IMG/VR virus record: IMGVR_UViG_2721755646_000010
DNA length: 64,000 nucleotides
Source of the DNA: a virus
Taxonomy: Duplodnaviria; Heunggongvirae; Uroviricota; Caudoviricetes
Strand: one strand, 5' to 3'
Position numbers: made by a program. Position 1 is the first letter of the stretch. Each line of letters opens with the position of its first letter. Below, piece after piece: positions 15,001 through 18,000 of the stretch.

Positions 15001-18000
15001 GAAAACATGGCCGGACATGGGATCGTCTTTCAGCGCCGTTTGTACTTTCGCAGCCAGGCCGTTGAAGCCATTTCTCATATCGGTGATACCGGCAACCAGC
15101 CAAATTTTGGTCCCGGAAGGTAACGGGATCATCGCTTCAGTTCCTGTATCAGCAGAGTCAGGAGCTTTTCGCTGACATTGCCATTGAAGCGGAGCGTCCC
15201 GTGCCGGAACGTTACCTCACAGCTGATACTGAGGGTTTCCGGGTCCTCTGCGAGCGATTCTGGCTGTTCGGCAGCTGCATCGAGAGTCACAGGAAGTAGC
15301 TGGGGGCTCTCTGAAGAAGGTAATAGCAGCTTTCCCTCGCGCCATTGTTGTCGCCATTTGAACAACAGATTGGCGTTAATGCCATTTTCAAGAGCAAGTT
15401 TTGAGATGGATATCCCGGGTTCACAGGAGGCAGCAACGAGCTGCTGTTTAAATTCGGGAGGATAATTAGGGCAGCCTTTTCGCCTGCCGGGAGTCACATT
15501 TTTCTGCATATCTGATACTTTGGTTCCCACTACTTATTTGGTGGACACCACTTTGTCTAATTCGTCAGATTCTGACCAGACGGTTCAGGCTGTACGCTTA
15601 CCTGATGTCTCACCGGCGCTGGTATCGAAGGTCACCGATGCCGTTATGGAGCAGGTAGTCGAATGGCAAAACCGGCCACTGGATGCGGTCTATCCCATTG
15701 TTTATCTTGACTGTATTGTCCTGAAGGTTCGGCAGGACAGTCGCGTAATCAATAAATCCGTATTCCTCGCACTGGGTATCAATATCGAAGGCCAGAAAGA
15801 GTTACTGGGTATGTGGCTGGCCGAAAACGAGGGAGCGAAGTTCTGGCTCAATGTGCTGACTGAACTAAAAAACCGCGGCCTGAACGATATTCTCATAGCC
15901 TGTGTCGACGGGCTGAAAGGCTTCCCGGACGCTATCAACACGGTGTATCCGGAAGCCCGCATCCAGCTGTGCATCGTGCATATGGTGCGCAACAGCCTGC
16001 GGTTCGTTTCCTGGAAGGACTACAAAGCCGTCACCCGCGACCTGAAAGCCATCTACCAGGCCCCCACAGAAGAAGCAGGCCAGCAGGCGCTGGAAGCGTT
16101 CGCCAGCGCCTGGGACAGTCGCTACCCGCAGATAAGCCGGAGCTGGCAGGCAAACTGGACCAACCTGGCGATGTTCTTCGCTTACCCGGCAGATATCCGC
16201 AAAGTCATCTACACAACCAACGCCATCGAGTCGCTGAACAGCGTAATCCGGCATGCCATCAAAAAACGCAAGGTGTTCCCGACGGATGACTCAGTGAAAA
16301 AGGTCGTGTGGCTGGCAATCCAGGCGGCTTCACAGAAATGGACGATGCCACTGCGGGACTGGCGTATGGCAATGAGCCGCTTTATTATCGAGTTCGGTGA
16401 CCGCCTGGACGGTCACTTCTGAGAAAAGGCATTTACACAGAATCGTGTACAGGGTCGATTTTACTCGTTAATTAGCGAACAAACCACTCGTCAGCAGACT
16501 CCCAGGTATCTTTCAGCGTCTCCTGAACAAAAGTTTTTGCAGAATCTTTATCGGCGGTGCGAGTAACTGAAAGGCCATCGTTGCTGGTGGATTTGATGAT
16601 CACTTCTACATCGTCATAACGTTTACTGACACGTCGCAGCATTTCTTGTTGCAGGGCAGGAACAGAACCTTTTGGCATTTTGTTGATTTTGGCTGCGGGG
16701 TATCTGTGGGGCATATATGGGACATAAAAAGGCCTCAAATAAACAGCAAAATCGAGATTAGGGATTTTTAGAAAAAATACAACCATCTGAAAAAACTTAG
16801 AAAACACCCAAAAACCCACAGAATAGTAAAAAACATCTATGAATTATGGATTTCAAGAGTCATTCAATCTAACTAATTGATAAATAAAAAATTAACTTTT
16901 CATCGCTTCGTTATGGGGCATGGTTGGGGCAAACTCGCTTAACTGTGTATTTAACAGCGTTACCTGCGCATTATTATTTTCTGACATCCATTTCCCGTAC
17001 ACCTGAAACACCATTTGCGCATCTGCATGGCCCATCTGGTTTGCAATGAATGCCGGGTTAGCTCCTGCTGTTAACGACCAGCAGGCATAAGTGTGTCTCG
17101 ACTGATACGATTTGCGATGGCGGATTCCGGCACGCTTTACCGCTGCGTCCCACATCTGCCTTATTGAGTCAACGGTAAAATGGTCGCCATAATTTTTTAC
17201 TTTCGCTGACACTTCAGGTTGAAAAACAAAGGTACATTTTTGTTTCTCTGTTCTGCCGAATTCTCTGAGGTGAACATCGATGATATGCTCTTTGCTCAGT
17301 CTCGTTAGTGCCATCTGACTCCGGAGAGCGTCGATTGCGGGCTTAATAAGGTGAATCACACGATTGGTTCCCGCCTGTGTTTTTGGTACTGTAAAACGGT
17401 CTTTTGCCAGATTTCTTCTGATTATCATTCTGCCATTGCGCAAGATGGTTGCGGTTTTTCTTCATCATTTTCTTCTTCTGTTTCCTGCTTAGCAGACAGT
17501 TCGCGGTTAACTTCTTCCAGGATATCTTTTTCCGGTGTATGTCGTGCAGCAGTGAGAGTTTCCTTGCTGGGGTTCTCGTGATCAGTCTCCGTTAAGTAGG
17601 CGTTGATATACCCCTGAAGGCGTCCCGGGTAGTGATAAAACTCAGGGTGAGCGCTCCGGATAAGTGCAAAAATAGCGGCGCGGGAATAGTCCAGAATACC
17701 CGGGGTTGCGCGAAGTGCTGCGGACCATTCTTTGAACGGACTTTCTCTTTTCAGGACGATTTCTTTTGCGCGACGATAAACGCTGCCCGGAATTTCATAA
17801 ATATTAAAATCCATCGGAAGTGTGGCTGCTGCAATCTCCACATCCAGCGTATCGAAGGTGTGTACTAAATTCGGATTGCGATCGGTTTTGTTCCCGCCAC
17901 CGGCATTTGCACCGGAAGCCGTACGGGTGATACGCGAAACACGATTTCCTTTCATCCACTCTTTTGTCAGCAGACCCCGATCAGTGTAGTCAGCGTCCAG

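Follow-up and report, generated by a model that had tools for sequence, protein, structure and literature searches.

The 64,000-nucleotide stretch of DNA analysed here (the window; IMG/VR virus record IMGVR_UViG_2721755646_000010, Caudoviricetes) comes from Escherichia coli O157:H7, and in it a block of 398 bp is found twice, at 16457-16854 (copy 1) and at 62328-62725 (copy 2). The block is very probably the right-hand end of a Qin-family lambdoid prophage that integrates into the gene ydfJ, with copy 1 marking the tandem junction between a prophage of the Sp12 type (prophage 1) and a prophage of the Sp11 type (prophage 2), both known from O157:H7 strain Sakai. It is made up of a DinI-like cargo gene, a phage attachment arm (P arm) of about 125-150 bp and an attachment core of 15 bp; in copy 1 the P arm and core are joined to the P' arm and the integrase remnant of the next prophage. 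All features are on the plus strand unless stated otherwise.

The two copies are 100% identical over the 398 bp without any gap, as found by alignment and by base-by-base extension, and are spaced 45,871 bp apart. A chance origin of such a match is impossible. An earlier reading made from the sequence alone (the sequence-only reading) had noticed this identity and was right about it, but had set the start of copy 1 one base too high, at 16458. Both copies terminate in ...ATGAATTATGGATTTC, and past this point copy 1 leads into a truncated tyrosine recombinase gene from its stop-codon side and copy 2 into the coding sequence of ydfJ, as had also been described. Self-comparison of the two prophage halves revealed no second perfect repeat in the window. 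The remaining segments common to both prophages are 76.6-94.0% identical; these are the L segment (94.0% over 719 bp), the K segment (91.8% over 809 bp), the 3' segment of stf (91.3% over 667 bp) and two more pieces with 76.6% and 86.6% identity. The term "near-identical", previously applied to the L, K and stf segments, was therefore overstated.

The anatomy of the attachment site was obtained from an alignment of four sequences: the unoccupied ydfJ of strain NCTC86, where the gene is intact between rspB and ydfI; the left attachment site (attL) of N5D43, a single ydfJ lysogen; the window junction; and the right attachment site (attR) of the window. With B and B' standing for the bacterial sides, P and P' for the phage arms and O for the core, the four sites read B-O-B' (the bacterial site, attB), B-O-P' (attL), P-O-P' (junction) and P-O-B' (attR). 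The phage-type core TGAATTATGGATTTC, of 15 bp, is placed at 16840-16854 in the junction, in agreement with the match limits across genomes, and at 62711-62725 in attR, where the matches to unoccupied ydfJ begin (query position 186, which is 62711). In attB the core has one extra T, a 1-nt indel, and the sequence TTATGGATTTC is exact in all four sites. The core is located 78-93 nt into ydfJ and its limits agree with the att sequence of 18-19 bp defined for ydfJ prophages in the legend to S7 Fig of PMC8112680. The att-like end that had been ascribed to the block contains a core common to attB and to both copies. On this alignment copy 2 reads as a regular attR (P-core-B') joined to ydfJ at codon 29, and copy 1 as an attP-type hybrid site (P-core-P'), as expected of a tandem lysogen.

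The 3' part of ydfJ (62717-64000) is a pseudogene that lacks the first 28 codons, according to the EDL933 RefSeq annotation, the intact gene of NCTC86 and the frame given by the alignment. The in-frame ATG of codon 29 (62717-62719) is kept within the attR core, and the predicted open frame runs from there to the natural stop at 64000.

The sequence to the left of the junction core is identical to the window's own attR and homologous to the attR of prophage Qin of E. coli K-12 from 16707 onward, and the sequence to its right is 99.5% identical to the attL of N5D43, which includes an intact integrase gene. The P arm occupies 16707-16839 and the P' arm of prophage 2 occupies 16855-16935, where it overlaps the 3' end of the integrase remnant. 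This P' arm is identical to that of the N5D43 attL and about 89-91% identical to that of the K-12 Qin attL. Homology to the right end of Qin and to strain UTAK-12 begins exactly at 16707, near the start codon of the DinI-like gene. The stretch TGGGGCATATATGGGACA found at this position is invariant and the remainder of the P arm diverges, while in the P' arm TATGGGGCATGGTTGGGGCA is invariant across all the attL sequences compared. These invariant stretches lie at about -135/-120 and +60/+75 from the core, and this layout resembles that of the P and P' arm-type sites of phage lambda. We propose TGGGGCA as a candidate arm-type integrase site, with putative sites in the P arm at 16707-16713 (TGGGGCA) and 16718-16724 (in the form TGGGACA) and in the P' arm at 16914-16920 and 16925-16931 (both TGGGGCA). 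The case for these sites is one of position and of conservation across diverged att regions.

The distribution of the junction was assessed with a 300-bp probe spanning it and compared with 5426 complete E. coli genomes, a match over at least 80% of the probe being counted as the junction. It was present in 277 genomes (all five among the matches listed at 100%), and the attR end was present in 264. Thousands of genomes, K-12 included, match the probe only from position 136 (16840) rightward, which is the attL type, and in O55:H7 strain RM12579 and some others the match is confined to probe positions 1-150 or 1-153 (to 16854-16857), which is the attR type. Many complete genomes of E. coli O157:H7 contain the junction region and the ydfJ end at 100% identity. 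In the Sakai record Sp11 extends over 2158311-2204088 (45,778 bp) and adjoins the ydfJ pseudogene, and Sp12 is annotated from the very next base, 2204089, with a "DNA damage-inducible protein" gene at the right end of each of the two prophages. Since the sequence from 10334 to the window end is 99.6-99.98% identical to the Sakai Sp12 right end, Sp11 and ydfJ, the boundary between Sp12 and Sp11 falls at the window junction, 16854/16855. The P-core-P' anatomy, the Sakai boundary and the number of genomes with the junction all bear out the proposal that copy 1 defines a tandem prophage junction.

These counts bear directly on the possibility that the duplication and its junction are an assembly artefact, produced by repeats that were collapsed or mis-joined. 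Another joint in the window, at about 10334-10342, occurs in none of the 5426 genomes and could indicate a chimeric stretch; nevertheless, with the junction of copy 1 found in so many independent complete genomes, the attR end in nearly as many and the same boundary annotated in Sakai, such an origin is scarcely credible for the repeat. We consider it equally far-fetched that prophage 2 sits inside prophage 1, at a secondary attB carried by that prophage, instead of in tandem at the chromosomal site. Sites of this kind (attB-in-PP) are tied to nleG and other effector loci in O157 ydfJ clusters (PMC8112680). However, the junction core is the core of the ydfJ attB, its left side is the canonical P arm of single lysogens including K-12 Qin, and to the right of prophage 2 comes ydfJ' directly, with no prophage 1 sequence. 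A core lying in an effector locus and unlike the chromosomal attB was not found at the junction, the published attB-in-PP sequences themselves not having been searched.

Prophage 2 extends over 16855-62725 (45,871 bp), is 99.3-99.6% identical to EDL933 and to Sakai Sp11, and carries as cargo the regulator pchB and three nleG effector genes (nleG5-2/6-2/2-3). Its integrase remnant (16892-17443, minus strand) encodes the C-terminal 183 aa with a PF00589 domain, is annotated as incomplete without its N-terminus, and shares 98% identity with residues 249-431 of the ydfJ-type integrase of N5D43, which is intact at 431 aa. The corresponding piece of Sp12 lies outside the window and was observed in EDL933 alone, where the Sp12 left end adjoins ynfA and has xis and an integrase fragment without its C-terminus, with 94.9% DNA identity to the matching part of the N5D43 module (N-terminal integrase and xis). 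As both prophages hold integrase pieces of the same module, both are of the ydfJ type. The two remnants are nearly complementary (residues 249-431 in Sp11 and about 1-229 in Sp12, out of 431 aa), which is probably the outcome of two independent deletions.

Beside the Sp12 left end of EDL933, rspA, rspB and the 5' end of ydfJ are all absent. A probe made of rspB and the ydfJ 5' end found no O157 genome among the matches listed, and had no match in 478 of the 5426 genomes, which were not confirmed as O157 strains. Moreover, the segment with P' and integrase occurs once per genome in most of the O157 records among the matches listed. With the 5' flank of ydfJ gone and this segment mostly in single copy, no attL survives and neither integrase is intact. 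Disrupted integrases and a lack of excision have been reported for Sp11 and Sp12 (PMC2669165), and since both integrases are broken the site-specific route is probably dead.

The Sp12-type right end of prophage 1 covers 10334-16854 and is 99.7-99.96% identical to EDL933 and to the Sakai sequence labelled "prophage Sp12". It contains a 3' remnant of stf, nleG genes, insertion sequences, the DinI-like gene and the attachment P arm. In the stf remnant a 1-nt deletion was observed (CCC-GAT vs CCCGGAT). Only from about 10334 onward is prophage 1 of the Sp12 type; positions 1-10341 are 99.7% identical to the region with the tail, L, arc, ant, K and nleL genes of a different O157 prophage, from strain F8952. 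The two parts meet at 10334-10342 in a microhomology of 5-6 bp (CCATGG), directly after the stop codon of nleL. A 411-bp probe across this joint was found in 0 of 5426 complete E. coli genomes, and no complete genome matches 1-12700 end to end, the best coverage being 87%. The joint stems either from a rare illegitimate recombination or from a chimeric assembly, and in both cases it is without effect on the junction at 16854/16855. The sequence-only reading had taken the arrangement for two related phages that integrated one after the other at the same site. The tandem at the ydfJ attachment site stands, but prophage 1 is no simple second ydfJ phage, being of Sp12 type only in its right-hand part and having lost its attL in EDL933.

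The arrangement in EDL933 was also looked at beyond the limits of the window. The prophage to the left of the junction begins there at ompW, with an intact integrase and xis, and the Sp12 left end, adjoining ynfA, is found about 410 kb away from the prophage that starts at ompW, in the opposite orientation. This layout bears the mark of an inversion between Sp9, the prophage at ompW, and Sp12.

The left edge of the repeat has a different nature from the right one. On the right, identity stops at the core; past it, P' and B' show no relation to each other. On the left, it stops exactly at the right terminal inverted repeat of an IS256-family insertion sequence (IS), ISEic2, which ends at 16456 and abuts the first base of copy 1. 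This element, recognised by its terminal inverted repeats and by annotation, covers 12692-16456 and is interrupted by ISEc8 (13160-15601, extent from sequence match). Its ends, GAGCCTGTACA.../...TGTACAGGGTC, are the same that bound an intact 1315-bp copy in O55:H7 strain CB9615. The flanks of ISEic2, TTTACTGAG (12683-12691) and GATTTTACT (16457-16465), show no target-site duplication, for which 8-9 bp would be expected of a simple insertion by this family. This suggests that the identity probably once extended further to the left and was taken off by an IS-adjacent rearrangement or deletion. When 12400-12691 was compared with the sequence left of copy 2 for remains of homology or of a diverged target-site duplication, the local alignment scored 27, against a mean of 19.9 and a maximum of 28 for shuffled sequences, and this candidate was dropped.

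The order in which the prophages entered was approached with a synthetic probe consisting of the ISEic2 end, the block and ydfJ', that is, the structure expected after exact removal of Sp11. Nine complete genomes match this probe, eight of them over its full length at 100% and one over 98% of its length. O55:H7 CB9615 and O157:H7 F3113 have this Sp11-less arrangement together with an intact ISEic2 and no ISEc8. The O55:H7 lineage is regarded as ancestral to O157:H7, and the arrangement of CB9615 and F3113 looks ancestral. As in these two strains the Sp12-type end adjoins ydfJ directly and ISEc8 is missing, the most economical view is that Sp12 was the first resident and that Sp11 entered at its attR, which suggests that Sp11 came second. 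In O157:H7 ECP19-798 the Sp11-less arrangement has ISEc8 within ISEic2 as in the window, and this looks like a secondary and precise loss of Sp11 across the repeat.

We can therefore picture the following history. A Sp12-type phage, with the IS256-family element already beside dinI, would have been resident in ydfJ of an O55:H7-like ancestor; the attP of a Sp11-type phage would then have recombined with the attR of Sp12, and ISEc8 would have inserted later into the IS256-family element. Both integrases are now broken, with the C-terminal part left in Sp11 and the N-terminal part in Sp12, and attL, the ydfJ 5' end and rspAB have been deleted. In its present state the block may act as a perfect direct repeat of 398 bp through which homologous recombination can delete Sp11 precisely.

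Several points weigh against this reading. The structure alone would be the same for integrase-mediated entry at the core and for a RecA-mediated Campbell insertion within the block, and the perfect identity over 398 bp stands against at most 97% elsewhere between Sp11 and Sp12, for which independent origin alone is insufficient; recent module sharing or gene conversion may be needed. The Sp12 left end and any attL are outside the window, and the part of prophage 1 within it is itself chimeric. The order of entry is a matter of parsimony over few genomes, without a phylogeny. Finally, the arm-site 9-mer ATGGGGCAT, allowing at most one mismatch, has 13 matches across the window against 21.9 expected, so that there is no enrichment.

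The first of these points leads to a RecA-dependent entry of Sp11, by Campbell recombination between the segments with dinI, P arm and core, without action of the integrase at the core. One crossover at any point of the 398-bp homology would yield the observed structure, the precondition of perfect identity between the blocks exists, and prophage insertion through homology with a resident prophage has been reported in O157:H7 clade 8 (PMC9997748). On the other hand, Sp11 has the matching P' arm and a fragment (98%) of an integrase of the right specificity, so the ordinary route was open before the integrase was truncated, and tandem integration of Sp10 at the resident attR next to Rac has been shown experimentally (PMC2669165). 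We regard RecA-dependent entry as rather unlikely, and integration of the Sp11 attP into the Sp12 attR as the preferred explanation.

The second point brings in gene conversion: the blocks could have been similar on arrival and homogenised later, in a tract bounded by the IS on the left and by the P'/B' heterology on the right. It would account for 100% identity over 398 bp when all other shared segments are at 76.6-97%, both edges of identity coincide with hard heterology boundaries, and the block differs by 0.3-5% in other lineages. However, the Sp12-type block of O55:H7 is already 100% identical to both copies, so no change in the Sp12 copy is needed, and the missing target-site duplication of the IS explains the sharp left edge by deletion. 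Gene conversion is thus unlikely in our view, though it keeps some weight.

A further possibility is that the tandem began as a double lysogen of one and the same phage, whose two copies diverged by mosaic exchange with other O157 lambdoid prophages, the block being the only identical segment left untouched. Prophage 1 is visibly mosaic, and recombination between O157 prophages is well documented (PMC8743559; PMC8112680). Nevertheless this is very improbable, because the head-gene type and the helicase loader differ between the two (PMC2669165; annotations), their shared genes are at most 97% identical, and O55:H7 has a Sp12-type prophage alone at ydfJ.

One may also speculate that the segment with dinI, P arm and core acts as a homology "landing pad", allowing RecA-dependent entry of Sp11 and its recurrent loss, with gene conversion keeping the copies identical. 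We think this combination quite improbable. If it were true, the pair would behave as a recurring genetic switch by which pchB and three nleG effectors are lost or kept in O157 populations.

The gene in the block is found at 16472-16714 in copy 1 and at 62343-62585 in copy 2, on the minus strand in both, and encodes a protein of 80 aa that has the same accession for both copies in EDL933 (RefSeq WP_001120551.1). The protein matches the DinI profile of Pfam (PF06183) with 64.4 bits, well over the cut-off of 24.2, and E = 1.2e-17, residues 14-78 covering the profile from 1 to 63 of 63. It had been called ydfK-like, and this label did not hold, since BLASTP between K-12 YdfK and the DinI-like product returned no alignment at E <= 100. 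In the Qin-type prophages of K-12 and UTAK-12 the equivalent position is held by ydfK/ynfT, which is probably the source of the label; ydfK of Qin lies several hundred bases away from the Qin P arm, and homology to Qin begins only at 16707. In EDL933, the neighbours of copy 1 are the IS256-family transposase gene, split by ISEc8, to the left and the tyrosine recombinase without N-terminus to the right, and copy 2 stands between nleG-family effector genes and ydfJ without N-terminus. A scan of 16300-17100 against Rfam at E <= 1 gave zero matches, and in a promoter and terminator scan nothing exceeded the shuffled sequences. In Sakai, an IS629 (IS1203) is inserted in the DinI-like gene of repeat copy 1, and the window does not have this insertion. 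It splits the repeat and should leave less contiguous homology for Sp11 deletion in that strain.

The tandem arrangement, the att sequence, the spontaneous deletions of Sp11-Sp12 and the boundary annotation in Sakai are already known. The closest known system is the Sp12-Sp11 pair of Sakai at ydfJ (PPydfJ-L/PPydfJ-R, Nakamura et al. 2021), which has the same junction position and the same genes on both sides, namely ISEic2/ISEc8, the DinI-like gene, the truncated integrase, nleG5-2/6-2/2-3 and the ydfJ pseudogene. Apart from the IS629 insertion, the two differ in that prophage 1 of the window is not Sp12 to the left of 10334. Prophage Qin of K-12 (intQ) uses the same ydfJ attB and core as the window; its P arm matches between 16707 and the core, at about 95% identity for the entire alignment, ydfJ included, and its P' arm and integrase with about 89-91%. 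However, Qin has ydfK/ynfT beside the P arm, is a single prophage and retains its attL next to rspB. In the Sp10 derivative next to Rac in K-12 and in tandem lysogens of lambda, the incoming phage uses the core of the resident attR or attL and leaves an attP-type hybrid (PMC2669165). The window differs from these tandems in that both of its integrases are degraded, so that the arrangement would be fixed, and in that the host attL is deleted. In the prophage deletions and inversions of O157:H7 (Chen et al. 2013; Iguchi et al. 2006; Fitzgerald et al. 2021) homologous segments of lambdoid prophages, neighbouring or distant, are the substrates of recombination, as here, and no difference in mechanism was found. 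Two lambda-like prophages in tandem at ydfJ, with various deletions, are also described with reference to Chen et al. 2013 (PMC9997748; PMC7430833).

Deletions and inversions of the Sp11/Sp12 prophages are a known source of variation in pulsed-field gel electrophoresis (PFGE) patterns and in genome structure in O157:H7. Among the deletion classes in the 2013 abstract of Chen and colleagues, one reportedly removes Sp11 precisely and two are said to span the junction. The present observations have little significance as a discovery and their practical use is in annotation: the block should be labelled as a DinI-like gene with an attR/attP arm and not as ydfK, the junction as a Sp12/Sp11 hybrid att site, and the repeat flagged as a substrate for the precise loss of Sp11 with pchB and nleG5-2/6-2/2-3.

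Variants of the region were also observed in individual strains. The junction and the ydfJ end lie 39.1 kb apart in TW14359 and JEONG-1266 instead of 45.8 kb, a shortening by 6.6 kb. FRIK2455 and FRIK2533 have these two ends on opposite strands and at a distance of 338 kb, which points to an inversion that has one of its ends within Sp11, and FRIK2069 has the standard arrangement. Strain UTAK-12, whose record gives no serotype, has an independent tandem junction at the same att (2122-3527 of the compared segment). It runs from a right end of the Qin type (ydfK, ynfT) through the core and the P' arm to a ydfJ-type integrase disrupted by an IS, with 90% identity to the O157 junction.

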